A stretch of DNA of 64,000 nt from a virus (IMGVR_UViG_3300028805_000048); one strand, 5' to 3'. Positions 24,101 to 35,275 are shown, counted from the first letter of the stretch. Numbers and translations: made by a program. The notes: generated by a model from the letters alone, not told the origin.

Positions 24101-25060
24101 ATGGAACAGCAAACACAATCTACTTTTGATGAAGATTTTAATTTGACAGAACAAAAAAAATTTCTTAGTCTATTAATTTATGATCCACAATGGGCATTAC
24201 TTAATGGATTAGAAGTAATACGTCCAGAGTATTTTGATAGTAATTATCTAAAAAATATATGTAAATGGATTAAACAATATGCGAAAAAATATAAAAATAT
24301 ACCAACAAAGTTAGTATTACAACAAAAAGCACAAACATTGATAAATGATAATCAATTATCTACAAAGGAATATTATAGATATCAAGAAATTTTAGATGAG
24401 ATTTTTACATTAGAACAATCTGATGAACTTGAATATTTTAAAGAAAAGGCTATAGAATTTGCAAGAACAGCAACTTGGAAAGCAGCTTTATTTGATGCTA
24501 CGAATACACTAAAAATACATAATTATGAAGAAGCTCTTGCTAAATTTAGAGAAGTTTTAGATCTAGGTTCAGAAAAAGATCTTGGAACAGATTTTAAAGA
24601 GCAAACACCTGATGAATTTTTAAAATTGTTAAATGAAAAATACGATAAAGCGAATATGATTCAGACAGGTATAGAAGGCTGGGATAAAGCTTTAGGAGGT
24701 GGATTTGCTAGAAATAATATACATATCATCGCAGCGTGTTTTTTAGGAAAAACAAAAATAAAAACAAATAAAGGAAAATTGAGTTTTGAAGAATTATCTA
24801 AATATACGAATTATGATGATTTAGAAATATATAGTTTTGATGGATCAAATAAAATTAAAACAAAAATAAAAAATGTTTTTGAAACAAAAAAAGTTAAAAA
24901 ATTAATGTATTTAAAATTTAATAATGGAAAATCTTTACAATGTACACCAGACCATTTATTTGTAATTAAAAATCCAACAAAAAACGATCCTTATATAATA
25001 TATGAAAATGGAATAGCTTATAAGCAGGCTCAATATTTAGGAGAAAATGATGAATTCTGA
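24101..25060 (+). CDS. Replicative helicase (DnaB/gp41) N-half fused to intein N-fragment
   Basis: IQTGIEGWDKALGGG...HIIAA then CFLGKTKI (intein block A, Cys at 24737) and CTPDHLF (block B); ORF ends at YLGENDEF. Confidence 0.88.
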   Translation: MEQQTQSTFDEDFNLTEQKKFLSLLIYDPQWALLNGLEVIRPEYFDSNYLKNICKWIKQYAKKYKNIPTKLVLQQKAQTLINDNQLSTKEYYRYQEILDEIFTLEQSDELEYFKEKAIEFARTATWKAALFDATNTLKIHNYEEALAKFREVLDLGSEKDLGTDFKEQTPDEFLKLLNEKYDKANMIQTGIEGWDKALGGGFARNNIHIIAACFLGKTKIKTNKGKLSFEELSKYTNYDDLEIYSFDGSNKIKTKIKNVFETKKVKKLMYLKFNNGKSLQCTPDHLFVIKNPTKNDPYIIYENGIAYKQAQYLGENDEF

Positions 25061-26915
25061 TACTTTTTGCGGTTATGTATACAAGATAACGAATATACTA
25101 AATAATAAGAGTTATGTCGGACAAAAATTCTCTCCTGTATTTATAGATAAATATTGGGGTAGTGGAGTTTATATTAGAAAAGCTATTAAAAAGTATGGTT
25201 TAGAAAATTTTAAACGTGAAATTTTATGTTGGTGCAAAACAAGAGATGAATTAGATGATCGAGAATTATATTATATAAAACAATATAATACCCTTTCACC
25301 AAATGGGTACAATTTAACATTAAATGTCTTTAAGTCTGGTAGAAAACAGAAACATTCTACTATAACAAAAATGAAAATGAGTCAAACACGATTAAACTAT
25401 TCAGACGAAAAGAAAAAAGAGATTTTAGATAAGTTTCATATGACATGTGAAAATAGAACTGAAGAAGAAAAATTAATTATACATAACAATAGAAGTAAAG
25501 CCATAAGATTTTCAGAAAAATTTCAAAATACTGTACATTCTGAAGAATATAAAGAAAAACAAAGACAAAAATCGATTGTTGTTATGCAGAATCCAGAAAT
25601 TAGAAATAAATTATCTATTACCTCAAAGGAAAATTGGAAAAATGAAGATTATAGAAATATGTGTATAAAAAATTTAAAACATAATGATTCAGAAATACAA
25701 AGTAAGAGGAGTATAAAAGGCAATATTATTAGAAAAACAAATGGATTTGATCAATATAATAAATCAGAAAGAGCTAAAGAGATAAGTAAAAGGAACGCCG
25801 AATATATGAGAGAATTGAAAAATAATATGTCTGAAGAAGAGAAGTATATATGTAGTTTAAAAAGTAAAATTAAAGTTTTATTAAGAAATGAAAAGCTTAA
25901 TAAAGAAGAAATAATGACTTTATTTGAAATCATAAAGAATCATGAACCAACTTATGATTTATATGATTCACCGAAAGACAGACTTTTAAACAAAAAATTT
26001 CCAAAAATAAAATTAGTTAAAAAAGAAATTATAGAACTCGATAAAGAAATACCTGTCTATGATTTAACTGTTGATGGAAATATACCTAATTTTCAATTAG
26101 ATGCTCAAGTTTTTGTACATAACTGTCCAGGAGGGGGCAAATCAAGAATTATGGCTTTTCTTACAAAACAAGCTGTTATGGCTGGAAAGCGTGTAATTTT
26201 TATATCGTGTGAACTTGATGAAACTGAGACCATGGCAAATATAAATTCTTCTATTACTGGTTTAAGTATGTATGATATATTAAAACCTGAAAATAGAGAA
26301 GAATTTATCAAAAGAATAACAAATTTTAAAAATACTTTCGGTGGTAATTTGAAAATCAAATTTTATGGACCAAAAACGGTTAATTGTGATACTATTCATA
26401 ATTACATACGAAAAGTCATGCAAGAAGAAAAAGAAAAATTGAATGGAATAGAATGGAAACCTGATTTTATTGTTGTTGATTATATGGATAATTTATTGCC
26501 GATACAGAAAATGAAAGGTAGTTTATATGAAGACGGTGGTGCTGTTGCTAACGATTTAAAAAATTTAGCAATAAGTTTTGATTGTCCGATTGTTACTGGT
26601 TCACAGCTTGGTAAATTTTCTTGGAATATAAAAGAAGGCGATGTGATAAGTATGGATTCTATTGCTGAATCTGCTGCAAAAGTACATCTTGCCCATTCAA
26701 TGACAACAGTAAATTCAAATCCTGGTGAAAAAGCGTTAGGAAGAGCTCGTTTATTTTTAGCTAAATCACGTTCAGGTAGTGCAAATTCTGTTGTTTGGGT
26801 AGAAAATGATTTACCAAGATGTCGTTTACGAGAAATAGATGAATGGAGTCCAAAAGATGTAGAAAATGAGTTTGGCGCGTTTAGTGTTAAATCAAGTAAC
26901 AATAATCGTAAATAA
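25047..26915 (+). CDS. GIY-YIG endonuclease, intein C-fragment and helicase C-half
   Basis: GYVYKITN...YVGQ; VYDLTV...VFVHN/C (blocks F/G, ending 26123); then CPGGGKS Walker A, FISCE, VVDYMD, TGSQ, AKSR. Confidence 0.88.
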   Translation: MMNSDTFCGYVYKITNILNNKSYVGQKFSPVFIDKYWGSGVYIRKAIKKYGLENFKREILCWCKTRDELDDRELYYIKQYNTLSPNGYNLTLNVFKSGRKQKHSTITKMKMSQTRLNYSDEKKKEILDKFHMTCENRTEEEKLIIHNNRSKAIRFSEKFQNTVHSEEYKEKQRQKSIVVMQNPEIRNKLSITSKENWKNEDYRNMCIKNLKHNDSEIQSKRSIKGNIIRKTNGFDQYNKSERAKEISKRNAEYMRELKNNMSEEEKYICSLKSKIKVLLRNEKLNKEEIMTLFEIIKNHEPTYDLYDSPKDRLLNKKFPKIKLVKKEIIELDKEIPVYDLTVDGNIPNFQLDAQVFVHNCPGGGKSRIMAFLTKQAVMAGKRVIFISCELDETETMANINSSITGLSMYDILKPENREEFIKRITNFKNTFGGNLKIKFYGPKTVNCDTIHNYIRKVMQEEKEKLNGIEWKPDFIVVDYMDNLLPIQKMKGSLYEDGGAVANDLKNLAISFDCPIVTGSQLGKFSWNIKEGDVISMDSIAESAAKVHLAHSMTTVNSNPGEKALGRARLFLAKSRSGSANSVVWVENDLPRCRLREIDEWSPKDVENEFGAFSVKSSNNNRK

Positions 26916-30171: not shown

Positions 30172-30639
30172 ATGTCTAATTTGAAAGAAAATTTGAAAAT
30201 CATAAAAGAATTAACAAAAATTATAAAAGATAATCCAGATTGGCGTTTTCAACAATTGTTATGGAATTGTGGAATAATTGGTAGAAATTATAATGATCAA
30301 GATAAATTAGAAATAGAAGATAAATTTTATGAAAATTCAGATACTACATTAAAAATAATTAAAAATTTTTTACAAAATAGTGAAGATAGGCGTTTAGAAT
30401 ATTTACATTCGCATTCTTTGATGAATCGTGAAGAATTAGAAAAAGGAATAAAATGTCATTGTTTTTGTTGTTGTACAGAATTTAATTTTTCAGAAATTAA
30501 AGAATGGACTGATAATAATAAGACAGCAATTTGTCCATATTGTAAAGTAGATGCCATTCTTTCAGCAAATTTAAATATAACAAAAAATGAAATAAATAAA
30601 TTAAATAAAAAATATTTTAAGAAATCAACAGTTCTATAG
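30172..30639 (+). CDS. Two-domain hypothetical protein with C-terminal Cys cluster
   Basis: PDWRFQQLL N-terminal domain; CHCFCC...CPYC. Confidence 0.6.
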   Translation: MSNLKENLKIIKELTKIIKDNPDWRFQQLLWNCGIIGRNYNDQDKLEIEDKFYENSDTTLKIIKNFLQNSEDRRLEYLHSHSLMNREELEKGIKCHCFCCCTEFNFSEIKEWTDNNKTAICPYCKVDAILSANLNITKNEINKLNKKYFKKSTVL

Positions 30640-30643
30640 AATT

Positions 30644-30706
30644 ATGATGAAAAACTTTGAAATTACATATTCAGATTCCTATAATCAACCTGAAAGTTTA
30701 GGTTGA
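30644..30706 (+). CDS. Attenuator leader peptide 1 (MMKNFEITYSDSYNQPESLG)
   Basis: 20-codon ORF starting 7 nt after GTTCTA; its residues match the downstream tRNA set; overlaps the 1:2 and 2:3 pairing segments. Confidence 0.78.
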   Translation: MMKNFEITYSDSYNQPESLG

Positions 30707-30736
30707 TAGGTTTTTGTATACAAAGTTTTTAATCAC

Positions 30737-30780
30737 AAAAGCCTGTCAAAAAAAAAATAAAAATGACAGGCTTTTTATTT
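30737..30780 (+). terminator. Attenuator terminator of tRNA operon 1
   Basis: AAAAGCCTGTCA...TGACAGGCTTTTTATTT; the left arm can alternatively pair with 30704-30716. Confidence 0.8.
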
Positions 30781-30868
30781 TAAGGCTTTACAAAAAAGAA
30801 ATTACATGTTAAAAATAATTTTGTTTGTAAAGAGTTATAAAGACATTGTAAATAGGAAACAATATTAT

Positions 30869-30960
30869 GGAGGATTGCTAGAGAGGCTTAATAGAGCGGT
30901 TTTGAAAACCGTCGTGGATGAAATATGCCACCGAGTGTTCGAATCACTCATCCTCCGCCA
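30869..30960 (+). tRNA. tRNA-Ser(TGA)
   Basis: Cloverleaf with long variable arm, loop TT-TGA-AA, GCCA end. Confidence 0.92.
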
Positions 30961-31194
30961 ATAAGCTGCTGAGAGGGTTGTAGTAACTGTAGTTAAGAGA
31001 TTTAGAGCTCCTTAACAAAGCAGATTCCCATAACGGACAATGCTCAGTAGAATCTCTAAATGGATCGTTATAAAAACTACAAATTTTGGGGTGTCATATA
31101 TTGTAAGATACATGTCGGTCAGGCCTAGGGTACAAATAGAGGAAAGCTATATGCTGTGAATGTTTACCGTCACCTACCCCAAACATTTTTAAAA

Positions 31195-31268
31195 GCCGAA
31201 TTAGTATAATGGTATTACGACTGACTTGTAATCAGTTTATGGGAGTTCGATTCTCTCATTCGGCACCA
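31195..31268 (+). tRNA. tRNA-Thr(TGT)
   Basis: Loop CT-TGT-AA, TTCGA, ACCA end. Confidence 0.92.
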
Positions 31269-31273
31269 TTTTT

Positions 31274-31350
31274 TGGAATGTAGCTCAGTTGGTTAGAGCG
31301 CTTGACTGTTAATCAAGATGTCGTGGGTTCGAATCCCACCTTTCCAGCCA
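31274..31350 (+). tRNA. tRNA-Asn(GTT)
   Basis: Loop CT-GTT-AA, GCCA end. Confidence 0.93.
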
Positions 31351-31355
31351 ATCAC

Positions 31356-31433
31356 GGTGTTTTCGTTCAGTTGGTCTAGGACATCGCCCTGTCACGGCGA
31401 AGATCACGGGTTCAAATCCCGTAAACACCGCCA
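31356..31433 (+). tRNA. tRNA-Asp(GTC)
   Basis: Loop CT-GTC-AC, GCCA end. Confidence 0.93.
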
Positions 31434-31539
31434 TTTAAGGTTGAAAAGTTTGGTTTATGGAACCTACTATCTAATAAACTATATACCTTTATTAGCATCA
31501 TGATTGTGTAGTAGGTATGCTAATATAAAACTTTTTCAT

Positions 31540-31614
31540 GCGACCATCGACTAATGGTTAGGTCATCACCCTTTCACGGTGGTAATAGGGGTTCAAATCC
31601 CCTTGGTCGTACCA
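31540..31614 (+). tRNA. tRNA-Glu(TTC)
   Basis: Loop CT-TTC-AC, ACCA end. Confidence 0.92.
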
Positions 31615-31618
31615 ATAT

Positions 31619-31694
31619 CCTCAGGTAGTTAAAGTGGTTATAACGGGGGTCTTATAAACCTCTATTCCTGGTTCGAGTCCAGGCCAGAGGACCA
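31619..31694 (+). tRNA. tRNA-Ile(TAT)
   Basis: Stem GGGGT/ACCTC, loop CT-TAT-AA, ACCA end. Confidence 0.88.
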
Positions 31695-31707
31695 ATTTAT
31701 TTTTAAT

Positions 31708-31784
31708 CGGGAGTTAGCTCAGCCTGGTAGAGCGCTTGCTTTGGGAGCAAGATGCCGTTGGTTCGAATCCAATACTCCCGACCA
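31708..31784 (+). tRNA. tRNA-Pro(TGG)
   Basis: Loop TT-TGG-GA, ACCA end. Confidence 0.93.
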
Positions 31785-31790
31785 ATTTAT

Positions 31791-31876
31791 GCAAGGTTAT
31801 ACCGTAGGAGTAGCGGGACAGACTGTAAATCTGTTGTCTTTGGACTCGGGTAGTGCGACTCTATCACCTTGCACCA
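31791..31876 (+). tRNA. tRNA-Tyr(GTA)
   Basis: Loop CT-GTA-AA, variable arm, ACCA end. Confidence 0.88.
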
Positions 31877-31883
31877 GTTTTAT

Positions 31884-31963
31884 GGGGCGTTAAATCTGGT
31901 TCTAGAACAGATTGCTTAGGATGTAGATCCAAGATAACATGTGAAAATCATGTGGCCCCGCCA
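31884..31963 (+). ncRNA. Aberrant tRNA-like RNA
   Basis: GGGGC/GCCCC acceptor with GCCA end and three arms, but non-canonical D, anticodon and T loops. Confidence 0.55.
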
Positions 31964-32104
31964 AGTTAGGGAGTTTCTTGTAGTTCTTCTCCGTGGATAG
32001 GACAATTAGTGATGAACTAGTTTGTCAAAAAGAGCTGCTTTTGTGGGAACAATACACTGAGATTACATCATACGGTCCATGTTCCCTTCTCTTTTTTTTT
32101 TATT

Positions 32105-32178
32105 TAGGGTGTCTTCTAAGGGTCGGAAAGTGGAATTTGACTCCATTAATCGAGGTTCGAATCCTTGCACCCTAGCCA
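32105..32178 (+). tRNA. tRNA-Gln(TTG)
   Basis: Stem GTGGA/TCCAT, loop AT-TTG-AC, GCCA end. Confidence 0.9.
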
Positions 32179-32377
32179 CAGTTCAAAAATTGTCAGAAAT
32201 GGAGATTTTTTTGCTATTTTACAAGCATGTAAGTTAATTCAAAGATAAATATATTTTGAAGGTTAGTTTTACAATAACTTAGCTATGTGAAAAATTAAAT
32301 TAGTAATAAAATAAGTTGAATTTATGAATTATCTATACTTTAATAATTGGAACTAGATTATTACTAGGAGTAATATA

Positions 32378-33169
32378 ATGACTGTAAACAAATATAAAGA
32401 TATCATTATCAATAAATATACAGAATATGATGAAGATACTCGTTTGGTTAGTGATAGAGGACATAATTTAGAATATTTAACCACTATGCGTTATATTCAA
32501 AAATTCCTAAAACCAGGTGCTAAAATATTAGAAATCGGTGCAGCAACTGGACGTTATTCTATTACTTTGGCTGAGATGGGGTATGATGTTACTGCTGTTG
32601 ACCTTACTCCTAAAAATATTGAAGTAATGAAATCTAAAAGTAAAAGATTAAAGAATTTTAATTGTATGATTGGCGATGCTTTGGATTTGAGCATGTTTGA
32701 TGATAAAACTTTTGATATGGTTTTAAATTTAGGACCTATGTATCATTTATTTAACAAAAAAGATAAAAACAAAGCAGTAAGTGAAACTTTACGTGTTGCT
32801 AAAAGAAAAGCGATATGTATGTTTGCGTATCTTCCTTGTGCTTCATTAATGACTAGTTATGGTTTACGACACCAAGCAGTTTCTCATTTAGACGAGTTAA
32901 TGGATAATGTCGGACGTTTTAAGGATACACCTGAAGAAATATTTAATACTTTTCATATTGAAGATTTTAAGAAGCTATTTAATAAAACAAATACAAAATA
33001 TATTACTAATGTAGCTACTGATGGTATAGCATATGCTATGAAAGAATGGGTAGAACAATTATCTAAAAAAGATTATGATGCTTTTATAAAATGGCATTTT
33101 TTAACTTGTGAGCGTATTGATCAACAAGGATATAGTGCGCATTTGTTATATATTTGTAAGAAAAAGTAG
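32378..33169 (+). CDS. Class I SAM-dependent methyltransferase
   Basis: ILEIGAATGRY, VTAVDL, GDALDL, FDMVLNLGPMYHL. Confidence 0.88.
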   Translation: MTVNKYKDIIINKYTEYDEDTRLVSDRGHNLEYLTTMRYIQKFLKPGAKILEIGAATGRYSITLAEMGYDVTAVDLTPKNIEVMKSKSKRLKNFNCMIGDALDLSMFDDKTFDMVLNLGPMYHLFNKKDKNKAVSETLRVAKRKAICMFAYLPCASLMTSYGLRHQAVSHLDELMDNVGRFKDTPEEIFNTFHIEDFKKLFNKTNTKYITNVATDGIAYAMKEWVEQLSKKDYDAFIKWHFLTCERIDQQGYSAHLLYICKKK

Positions 33170-33343
33170 TTTATTTATCTTGAGAATTATAAGCTCACTT
33201 TAGCTAATTTATGTAAAGAATTGTCCCAGTAATCCTATGACATCTTAGTAATGTTATGATCTGTTCTATGCAATAACATAGAGTTTTAAAAATTCCTAGG
33301 TTCTATTTTTAAAATGGACAAATGATATTTTTAATTATTTTAT

Positions 33344-33447
33344 GGGAAGCGTATATAGCTATGGAGACTATGGCAAGGACTAGTACCCTTGTCCTCGTAA
33401 GTACTAGTTAAAGAGACGGATGGTTCGATTCCACAAACTTCCCACCA
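33344..33447 (+). ncRNA. Aberrant, enlarged tRNA-like RNA (104 nt)
   Basis: GGGAAG/CTTCCC acceptor with ACCA end and GGTTCGATTCC T-arm; ambiguous anticodon region. Confidence 0.6.
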
Positions 33448-33457
33448 TATTTACTAA

Positions 33458-33549
33458 GGAACAGTGGCTGAGTGGTTTAAAGCAGCGATCTACTAAATCG
33501 TCGAGGGCAGAAATGTCTTCCAATCGTTCGAATCGATTCTGTTCCGCCA
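33458..33549 (+). tRNA. tRNA-Ser(ACT)
   Basis: Ser-type body with long variable arm and G73; stem GCGAT/ATCGT, loop CT-ACT-AA. Confidence 0.88.
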
Positions 33550-33645
33550 ATTTTAAAAATGTTGTTTCCTATAAAAAAATGACTTTACAAAATAAAAAAT
33601 TTGTTTTATATATAAAAATATAAAATGAGAAAGGTTCTAATAAAT

Positions 33646-33723
33646 ATGATGAATAGATTAGTTAAAAAATGTTGGCACATGTTTGGATTCGCAGGTAAAA
33701 CTGACGGAGGTGTTAACTATTAA
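33646..33723 (+). CDS. Attenuator leader peptide 2 (MMNRLVKKCWHMFGFAGKTDGGVNY)
   Basis: 25-codon ORF starting 6 nt after GTTCTA (GAAAGG upstream); the run KKCWHMFGFAGK matches all 8 downstream tRNAs. Confidence 0.85.
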   Translation: MMNRLVKKCWHMFGFAGKTDGGVNY

Positions 33724-33752
33724 CTAAAATCTTTTCTAAAGTTAATTTAAAT

Positions 33753-33799
33753 AAAAACCTCCGAAAAAGTAAAAAGTTTCGGAGGTTTTTCTTATTTTT
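33753..33799 (+). terminator. Attenuator terminator of tRNA operon 2
   Basis: AAAAACCTCCGAAA...TTTCGGAGGTTTTTCTTATTTTT; the left arm is complementary to CGGAGGT at 33705-33711 in the leader. Confidence 0.85.
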
Positions 33800-33819
33800 A
33801 TGTATATATTATGAAGATT

Positions 33820-33898
33820 GGGGAATGGGACTGCTTGGGGTGGTCATCTCGTTTGCACCGAGAAATTCAGGTGAGTTCAAAACTCACATTCTCCACCA
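33820..33898 (+). tRNA. tRNA-Ala(TGC)
   Basis: G3:U70 pair, loop TT-TGC-AC, ACCA end. Confidence 0.9.
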
Positions 33899-33900
33899 AT

Positions 33901-33976
33901 GGATATCTGGTATAGCTGGTGCGTACGTCTGTCTGAAGAACAGAAGGACCGAGTTCGATTCTTGGGGTATCCACCA
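33901..33976 (+). tRNA. tRNA-Phe(GAA)
   Basis: Loop CT-GAA-GA, ACCA end. Confidence 0.9.
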
Positions 33977-33980
33977 TTAC

Positions 33981-34056
33981 GGAGCTATAGTATAAATGGT
34001 TATTACTTGCGACTTTTAATCGTAAAATCAAGATTCGAGTTCTTGTGGCTCCACCA
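33981..34056 (+). tRNA. tRNA-Lys(TTT)
   Basis: Loop CT-TTT-AA, ACCA end. Confidence 0.9.
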
Positions 34057-34059
34057 AAT

Positions 34060-34135
34060 GGCAACATATTTCAATCGGTAGAAAGCATCTCTCATAAGGA
34101 TGTAGTTACTTGTTCAAGTCAAGTTGTTGCCACCA
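34060..34135 (+). tRNA. tRNA-Met(CAT), elongator (Ile2 not excluded)
   Basis: Paired G1:C72, loop CT-CAT-AA. Confidence 0.85.
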
Positions 34136-34138
34136 TGT

Positions 34139-34212
34139 GGACCGTTGACAGAGCGTTTATGTGTTCGGCTGCAACCCGAATTAGATGGGTTAGACTCCCT
34201 TACGGTTCTCCA
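34139..34212 (+). tRNA. tRNA-Cys(GCA)
   Basis: Loop CT-GCA-AC, U73 discriminator. Confidence 0.88.
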
Positions 34213-34214
34213 AT

Positions 34215-34289
34215 GCGATTCTCGTATAATGGTTATTATGTTAGTCTTCCAAACTAAAGATATGAGTTCAATTCTCATGAATCGCTCCA
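34215..34289 (+). tRNA. tRNA-Gly(TCC)
   Basis: Loop CT-TCC-AA, U73 discriminator. Confidence 0.9.
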
Positions 34290-34291
34290 AA

Positions 34292-34365
34292 GGAGGTTTA
34301 GTTCAAAGGTAGAACACTGGTCTCCAAAACCAAAAATGATTGTTCGAGTCAGTCAACCTCTGCCA
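34292..34365 (+). tRNA. tRNA-Trp(CCA)
   Basis: Loop CT-CCA-AA, GCCA end. Confidence 0.9.
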
Positions 34366-34415
34366 TTTCAAAATTTTACGCATAGAAGTATATATCAGTG
34401 ACTTGGTTTATACTT

Positions 34416-34492
34416 GTGTGCGTAGCATAAATGGATAATGCACTGGTTTGTGGTACCAGATCATGTGGGATCATACCCCACCGTACACCCCA
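34416..34492 (+). tRNA. tRNA-His(GTG)
   Basis: Stem CTGGT/ACCAG, loop TT-GTG-GT, C73; genomic base at -1 is T rather than G. Confidence 0.85.
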
Positions 34493-34628
34493 ATAAAATT
34501 TTTATTTATGGCTTTACTTTTACAAAACATTATTTTATTTTAAATTTGTTTGTTAAATATATACAAACGTTGTATTAACCGTGGAATTTTTCAGAAACCA
34601 CATTAAATAAACTGAAGAGGATAATGAA

Positions 34629-34850
34629 ATGTCAAAAAGTCAAATGATAGATAGACGTATAAATAAAATAGATGATAATTTTGTATATGTTGAATATACT
34701 TATTTATATGTCGATGAAAAAGAAAATATAGAAAAACAAAAAGGTGATTTTAAAGGTTTTCATCCAATTGGTAAAACTATCCATAAAAATATTAAGATGC
34801 ATGGAAAATATACTGGTTGGGTATGGGGACAAATGTATCAAAAAAATTAG
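34629..34850 (+). CDS. Hypothetical protein
   Basis: GAGGA RBS; TTTACT promoter at about 34514. Confidence 0.6.
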   Translation: MSKSQMIDRRINKIDDNFVYVEYTYLYVDEKENIEKQKGDFKGFHPIGKTIHKNIKMHGKYTGWVWGQMYQKN

Positions 34851-35199: not shown

Positions 35200-35275
35200 A
35201 GCAGGGTAGAGCAGTAGTAGCTTACTTGGCTCATAACCAAGAGGTCGTGGTGTGCAATTCCCACCCCTGCAACCA
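35200..35275 (+). tRNA. tRNA-fMet(CAT), initiator-like
   Basis: Unpaired 1:72, TAGAGCAG D-stem, loop CT-CAT-AA, AACCA end. Confidence 0.85.

Follow-up and report, generated by a model that had tools for sequence, protein, structure and literature searches.

Codons for eight amino acids in a putative leader-peptide attenuator ahead of the eight matching tRNA genes of a phage

Results

The tRNA region and its leaders

The DNA analysed here is a stretch of 64,000 nucleotides (nt) from a virus (IMGVR_UViG_3300028805_000048), referred to below as the window. It belongs to the genome record of an uncultured phage, 157,473 bp long with 28% GC, in which every transfer RNA (tRNA) gene lies at window positions 30869-34492. 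A short open reading frame (ORF), named leader ORF 2, is placed between a promoter-like sequence and an intrinsic terminator, just ahead of an operon of eight tRNA genes (operon 2). A paralogous arrangement, leader ORF 1, precedes another set of tRNA genes (block 1). The present report deals mainly with leader 2 and with the way in which it may govern expression of operon 2. Features of both units are collected in Table 1.

Table 1. Elements of the leader 2 unit, followed by those of the paralogous leader 1 unit (window coordinates)
Feature	Position	Strand	Description
Promoter of leader 2, sigma70-like	33584..33612	+	TTTACA (33584-89), 17 nt, TATATA (33607-12); predicted from sequence, kept in relatives
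Shine-Dalgarno-like sequence and GTTCTA motif	33627..33639	+	GAGAAAGG (33627-34), overlapping GTTCTA (33634-39) 6 nt before the ATG
Leader ORF 2	33646..33723	+	25 codons and stop (33721-23); start, frame and stop kept in three relatives
Sensing run	33664..33699	+	KKCWHMFGFAGK; 12 codons (codons 7-18), only K, C, W, H, M, F, G and A
Segment 1 (putative anti-antiterminator)	33671..33694	+	pairs with segment 2 without ribosome in minimum-free-energy folds
Segment 2 (putative antiterminator strand)	33705..33714	+	CGGAGGT(G)TT, in the Gly-Gly-Val codons of the ORF tail
Intrinsic terminator of leader 2	33753..33799	+	14-bp GC-containing stem (33753-66 with 33777-90), 10-nt loop, U-rich tail
tRNA operon 2	33820..34492	+	Ala-TGC, Phe-GAA, Lys-TTT, Met-CAT, Cys-GCA, Gly-TCC, Trp-CCA, His-GTG; ARAGORN, Rfam
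Leader ORF 1	30644..30706	+	paralogue; 13-codon run EITYSDSYNQPES with only, and all, nine block-1 identities
Leader-1 switch	30704..30781	+	antiterminator 30704-15 (includes the stop codon), terminator arms 30737-48/30764-75, U-tract
Promoter downstream of the leader-1 terminator, sigma70-like	30787..30816	+	
tRNA block 1	30869..32178	+	Ser-TGA, Thr, Asn, Asp, Glu, Ile-TAT, Pro, Tyr-GTA, Gln; conserved non-tRNA RNA stretches in between

Transcription of leader 2 is expected to start near 33620. The promoter belongs to a recurrent (A/G)GCTTTACA-N17-TATAAT-like motif, of which about 15 copies are found before genes in this genome, and the promoter, the Shine-Dalgarno (SD)-like GAGAAAGG and the ATG are all kept in three relatives. 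An in-frame ATG further upstream, at 33625, was considered as the start and rejected, because it is not conserved in relatives. The terminator and tRNA-Ala are separated by just 29 nt, in which no promoter-like site was detected, so that operon 2 would be reachable only by read-through of the terminator. The first-pass annotation of this locus had relied on the absence of a separate promoter for operon 2 downstream of 33790; indeed, none fits in this interval.

The putative sensing run names the eight downstream tRNAs

The ORF was found to translate as previously claimed, with a run of 12 codons that uses eight residues only. These are also, as predicted, the identities of the next eight tRNA genes, called by ARAGORN and Rfam at 33820-34492. 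The Rfam tRNA model gave 43-64 bits for the seven genes from Phe to His, and tRNA-Ala is absent from the Rfam table. A six-frame scan of the 157,473 bp found exactly one 12-codon span with only, and all, these eight residues, which is leader 2, and it remained the sole locus when the span was lengthened to as many as 18 codons and four foreign residues were tolerated. Using six-frame residue frequencies, the probability is 4×10−9 per span, and 0.001 such spans are expected per genome; the chance expectation in the 300 nt upstream of the cluster is 1.2×10−6. The match had been judged unlikely to arise by chance, and given its uniqueness in the genome and the 0.001 expected, chance is excluded as the source of the leader-2 run. 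The claimed agreement of isoacceptors held as well, 13 of the 15 in-set codons being read by phage anticodons under strict wobble; two GGT codons of leader 2 need four-way decoding by U34.

At 28% GC, short ORFs abound, and block 1 has a promoter after its terminator. One could therefore suppose that leader 2 is a fortuitous ORF, or simply a small gene ending in a terminator of its own, that the tRNA block is expressed independently, and that the match between the two is a coincidence. We give almost no credence to this explanation, since the chance expectation is 1×10−6 at the position of leader 2, 13 other leaders, ahead of different tRNA sets, show such a match too (see below), the gap between the terminator and tRNA-Ala is too short to hold a promoter, and the peptides have no motif in common except what the tRNA sets and RNA pairing impose.

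Ribosome position and the fate of the putative antiterminator strand

The sequence CGGAGGT of segment 2 (33705-11) is complementary, as reported by the first-pass annotation, to ACCTCCG (33757-63) in the left arm of the terminator. The duplex between segment 2 and the left arm has a computed energy of −13.3 kcal/mol, versus −3.9 +/− 2.0 for shuffled sequence. Without a ribosome, the antiterminator strand is sequestered in a long hairpin by 33671-33694, a portion of the sensing run; in these models the segment 1 hairpin is a possible pause hairpin.

The effect of a translating ribosome was computed by footprint folding, on a nascent RNA extending to 33779, that is, before the right arm of the terminator exists. 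For each position of the A site, the surrounding 28 nt were forced to be unpaired, and the mean per-nucleotide probability of the left arm (33756-64) pairing with segment 2 was recorded. This probability was 0.23 in the absence of a ribosome, 0.71-0.77 when the A site was placed on any of the codons at 33652-33691, and 0.00 when it was placed anywhere from 33694 to the stop codon. Segment 2 is thus left free by a ribosome in the first ten codons of the run. The last such position is the single Ala codon, GCA at 33691, and the two run codons past it (Gly and Lys) repeat identities tested further upstream. The proposed behaviour, in which a stall in the run frees the antiterminator and a ribosome at the stop codon masks it, was therefore reproduced in silico by footprint-constrained folding.

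The opposite polarity also deserves consideration. Coupled ribosomes can in general suppress terminators, as is textbook knowledge, and control could be positive if plentiful cognate tRNAs and efficient translation of the leader allowed read-through, the trailing ribosome preventing formation of the terminator hairpin. We consider this very unlikely: the stop codon of leader 2 is 30 nt before the terminator stem, out of reach of a terminating ribosome, and the strand which such a ribosome covers is the complement of the terminator left arm in 14 of 14 leaders.

Relatives of the leader in viral contigs

A blastn search of the region against GenBank phages returned just generic tRNA matches, of about 75% identity, and no close cultured relative. 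Among cultured phages, tblastn gave distant matches only with the helicase encoded in the window (see below), and no match with the leader peptide; two neighbouring proteins searched singly against viral contigs had no match. Relatives were found in viral contigs with a degenerate pattern of the core peptide, and then with the motif GTTCTA-N3-AATATGATGA. A degenerate pattern for the exact leader-1 peptide had no match among viral contigs, and leader-1 relatives were reached through the common GTTCTA...ATGATGA motif instead. A pre-tRNA pattern, ACATTGTRAATANGAAA, produced mostly random matches, with at least 3 new useful loci among the matches listed. Finally, the profile of a 121-aa ORF kept within the tRNA region added one contig, L180. 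Altogether, 12 further leaders of the same type were recovered from seven related viral contigs, giving a total of 14 with the two of the window.

Leader 2 is present in G001, G002 and G003. Comparison of its 12-codon core between the window and these three contigs revealed four variable sites, all of them third-position and synonymous (AAA/AAG, CAC/CAT, GGA/GGC, GCA/GCC); the codons flanking the core have amino-acid-changing differences in the relatives. The terminator of G003 shows a compensatory two-sided change (CCTCTG/CAGAGG), and the antiterminator still pairs with it through G-U.

This pattern of substitution bears on whether the leader could act without being translated, like a T-box, through direct binding of tRNAs or a protein to its triplets or to the whole leader RNA. 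The strong structure of the leader RNA (z = −4.1) would suit such an RNA switch. The triplets nevertheless share a single reading frame, whose ATG and stop codon are conserved, substitutions in the core are synonymous only, and composition tracks amino-acid identity, not nucleotide sequence. Moreover, within 30400-34800, tRNAs and one sub-threshold OmrA-B match apart, no T-box or other Rfam family was found at E≤1. A translation-independent switch is thus highly improbable. The OmrA-B match (33703-33793; 23 bits for a cutoff of 40, E=0.36) was taken as chance.

Leaders follow the tRNA sets

Where the set of tRNAs differs between relatives, so does the leader. In G001 and G002, Val, Leu and Arg tRNAs have joined block 1; leader 1 has Val and Leu codons in both, and an Arg codon in G001, none being found in leader 1 of G002 despite the Arg tRNA in its block. 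Leader 1 of G003 carries Leu and Arg codons. The run YQSSYQYQPS of the G007 leader is placed before just Ser, Pro, Tyr-like and Gln tRNAs. In the 237-kb phage G004, tRNAs are grouped differently and three leaders are present. One of these has all of Met, Leu, Pro, Glu, Ala, Thr, Asn and Asp, plus some other residues, before those eight tRNAs; another, beginning MMKMMFKYIRFYK (a run of M/K/F/Y/I/R), precedes Tyr, Ile, Phe, Lys, Met and Arg tRNAs; and the last, with HCWCHH, precedes Cys, His and Trp tRNAs.

Every downstream identity is named by 7 of 9 leaders, with one identity absent from each of the other two. When six distinct leaders were assigned to six clusters in all 720 possible ways, the true assignment scored best, and the table of residues in the cluster versus residues in the leader (38/0/36/46, nine leader/cluster pairs) gives a Fisher p=6×10−11; such statistics ignore kinship among some leaders, and were hence restricted to clearly different ones. 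Under strict wobble, phage anticodons read between ~75 and 100% of the in-set codons of each leader (~85% overall). The choice between ATA and ATT codons tends to track Ile-TAT versus Ile-GAT, with an imperfect fit.

A stalled ribosome cannot distinguish an uncharged tRNA from a missing one, and the architecture is that of amino-acid attenuators. The same hardware might therefore report general amino-acid starvation, through tRNA charging, rather than tRNA abundance or integrity. We find this unlikely, because extra tRNA is no cure for starvation, so that the wiring would be wasteful, and because the match of leaders to tRNA genes holds for each block separately, even for a set of three, which fits product feedback.

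The putative switch covaries with its terminator

A terminator follows the leader in 14 of 14 cases. Nine units have different terminators, and in each of them the best partner for the strand that surrounds the stop codon is the left arm of its own terminator. Cognate duplexes range from −10.4 to −14.2 kcal/mol and add up to −110.7, compared to −61.6 +/− 7.8 for permuted pairs, with 0 of 200,000 permutations as good; shuffled strands give about −4 to −6 kcal/mol. Leader 2 and two leaders of G004 (G004-Lb and G004-Lc) are paralogues, in which the two bases before GAGGT co-vary with the bases after CCTC in the left arm. When codons were scored in 12 leaders, the ratio of in-set to out-of-set codons was 135/38 at positions where a stall frees the antiterminator, and 35/44 in the ORF tail. 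At the level of sequence, the parts of the switch, their conservation and their covariation are thus established.

Leader 1 and the GTTCTA motif

The identities present in leader 1 of the window are Ser, Thr, Asn, Asp, Glu, Ile, Pro, Tyr and Gln, and its antiterminator and terminator form a duplex of 12 bp with −13.9 kcal/mol. Leader 1 is devoid of an SD sequence. The motif GTTCTA is found 6-7 nt before the ATG in 14 of 14 leaders, the ATG being a second in-frame one in the case of G004-La. Genome-wide, 27 of the 30 sites matching [AT]AGTTCTA[AT] (in the window, for example, those at 33634, 30631 and 34869) are intergenic, and 20 lie 22-61 nt before a long ORF. For this reason, GTTCTA looks like a phage-specific promoter. 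If its start site were 6-7 nt downstream of the motif, leader mRNAs made from it would be leaderless, which would explain the lack of SD in leader 1.

Some details of individual tRNAs touch on leader 1. One AGT codon in this leader is an exact match for tRNA-Ser(ACT), a gene with an unusual anticodon (A34) at 33458-33549, which is also found in G002, G004 and G005. The block contains tRNA-Ile-TAT (31619-31694), which reads ATA; the sole Ile codon of leader 1 in the window is ATT, and relatives with Ile-TAT use ATA in their leaders. The Tyr-GTA gene (31793-31871) obtained 28.5 bits with Rfam and was called by ARAGORN at a lowered threshold.

Other features of the region

Four relatives retain the segment 30961-31139, between tRNA-Ser and tRNA-Thr, at 80-91% identity. 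A fold of about 135 nt within it contains nine compensatory base pairs, and no Rfam match was found; the segment probably gives rise to a small structured RNA, produced along with the tRNAs. Further inter-tRNA stretches, at 31434-31539, 31877-32104, 33330-33457 and 34366-34415, are 77-98% conserved in relatives (mostly >86%). The one at 33330-33457 ends in a T-arm-like sequence followed by CCA, and is called a tRNA by neither ARAGORN nor Rfam. A weak tRNA-Met-like sequence was detected after block 2 (35201-35271, ARAGORN at lowered threshold), with a similar call after tRNA-His in G003. A gene for a S-adenosylmethionine (SAM)-dependent methyltransferase (32378-33169), with generic Pfam methyltransferase domains, lies inside the tRNA region, between block 1 and tRNA-Ser(ACT), and may encode a tRNA-modifying enzyme. 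Away from the tRNA region, at 24101-26915, a DnaB-type helicase is apparently split: one ORF has an intein splicing signal, and the next starts with a GIY-YIG endonuclease domain followed by the DnaB C-terminal domain.

Discussion

A proposed mechanism

Leader 2 is very probably a ribosome-mediated (leader-peptide) transcription attenuator, gating a phage tRNA operon. It possesses a short ORF after a promoter, an enrichment in cognate codons, an intrinsic terminator and, in silico, a ribosome-dependent antiterminator. It departs from known attenuators by its regulated genes, which are eight tRNA genes and not amino-acid biosynthesis or synthetase genes.

From these elements we infer that the leader is translated, as well as the direction of the switch, its kinetics and timing, and the physiological signal, as follows. 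Transcription would start at the sigma70-like promoter of leader 2, and possibly also at the GTTCTA-type phage promoter right at the ATG, and a ribosome would translate the 25-codon leader as RNA polymerase heads for the terminator. The first ten codons of the run would test decoding of all eight amino acids, once or twice each. If all codons are read fast, the ribosome should be found in the ORF tail or at the stop codon, where it would cover the antiterminator strand; the terminator hairpin (33753-90) would then form and transcription would end 29 nt before tRNA-Ala. Should any of the eight aminoacyl-tRNAs run short, the ribosome would stall in the run and break the segment 1:2 hairpin, and the freed antiterminator would pair with the ACCTCCG of the left arm before the right arm is made, leading to read-through into the eight tRNA genes. 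The loop would amount to an eight-input OR gate on tRNA supply. Because its products are the sensed molecules, and would relieve the stall, it would exert a negative feedback on this supply.

Several observations weigh against this mechanism or restrict it. The first is that the full-length RNA, at equilibrium, forms the terminator with a probability of about 1 at every ribosome position. The first-pass annotation had named terminator formation at every ribosome position as a refuting outcome, and this outcome is obtained for full-length RNA at equilibrium; in the nascent RNA to 33779, pairing of the left arm with segment 2 does depend on the ribosome. Since the terminator always wins at equilibrium, the switch would have to be kinetic, and the equilibrium fold of the full-length leader is neither evidence against a kinetic switch nor support for it. 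The trp attenuator is likewise kinetic, its 3:4 hairpin being more stable than 2:3. Second, the promoter downstream of the leader-1 terminator is found in the window, in G002 and in G003, so that block 1 would not be gated exclusively, attenuator 1 being bypassed; in G001 the promoter is upstream of leader 1 instead. Third, the fit to the phage isoacceptor fails for some codons (GGT against Gly-TCC; GGC in G003), and the leader devotes only one or two codons to each amino acid, compared to the runs of classical leaders. With so few codons per amino acid, sensitivity to a mild shortage may be low, and the sensor may respond only to severe depletion. Finally, the spacing from SD to ATG is 11 nt in leader 2, versus 7-8 nt for other genes here, and the relative L180 has scattered tRNAs and no recognisable leaders of this kind.

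Comparison with known attenuators

To our knowledge, every leader-peptide attenuator described so far controls genes for amino-acid biosynthesis or for synthetases. In the full text of open-access papers and preprints, no description was found of tRNA genes under leader-peptide control. Among enterobacterial amino-acid operons, multivalent attenuators exist: the ilvGMEDA leader senses Ile, Leu and Val, and the thr leader senses Thr and Ile. The phage leaders resemble them by a short translated leader, four pairing segments (1:2, 2:3 and 3:4), an intrinsic terminator, and codons for more than one amino acid, such that shortage of any results in read-through. They differ in having eight amino acids (three to 13 in relatives), mostly with one or two codons each and no runs, and in controlling tRNA genes instead of enzymes, so that the product would be the molecule sensed.

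In trpL and hisL of E. coli and Salmonella, as in the phage leaders, the stop codon or ORF tail overlaps or adjoins the antiterminator, which a ribosome at the stop masks and an upstream stall frees, and the terminator is more stable than the antiterminator, hence the kinetic control; these leaders sense a single amino acid, however, and have biosynthetic targets. The attenuator of E. coli pheST (pheM leader) is also placed before a translation-apparatus gene and senses through decoding of cognate codons, but it controls a synthetase and not tRNAs, and senses one amino acid. The T-box riboswitches of Gram-positive bacteria share the sensing of tRNA status and a terminator/antiterminator switch before translation-related genes. 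Unlike the phage element, which is an ORF under coding-type selection, they bind uncharged tRNA directly, without a ribosome.

Leaderless polycysteine short ORFs have been described as Cys-responsive attenuators in mycobacteria (bioRxiv 10.1101/834739). They share with the phage leaders a short sensing ORF at the extreme 5′ end of the transcript, and the phage leaders may also be leaderless when made from GTTCTA; they respond to a single amino acid and have protein-coding targets, the abstract speaking of operonic gene expression rather than of tRNA genes.

Implications for phage tRNA genes

If our interpretation of leader 2 as an attenuator is true, phage tRNA genes would be subject to a direct, product-sensing feedback, in which the ribosome gauges how fast each tRNA identity is decoded and the matching block is transcribed only when decoding slows. 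Leader-peptide attenuation would be extended to a new class of targets and to an unprecedented number of inputs (eight, and three to 13 in relatives). The common view treats the tRNA genes of phages as a constitutive cargo which tunes codon usage or replaces cleaved host tRNAs.

The leader would also provide a readable list of the tRNAs that follow, and could help to predict tRNA content, operon boundaries, and divergent tRNAs missed by gene finders, of which the Tyr-like tRNAs of this region and its relatives are an example. More speculatively, the tRNA blocks might be inducible and self-limiting rescue modules, widespread in large phages to counter host defences, with OR-gate leaders that detect loss of any replaceable host tRNA and switch on the corresponding block. 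Such a loss of host tRNA could stem from anticodon nucleases, from other tRNA-targeting defences, or from tRNA decay late in infection.

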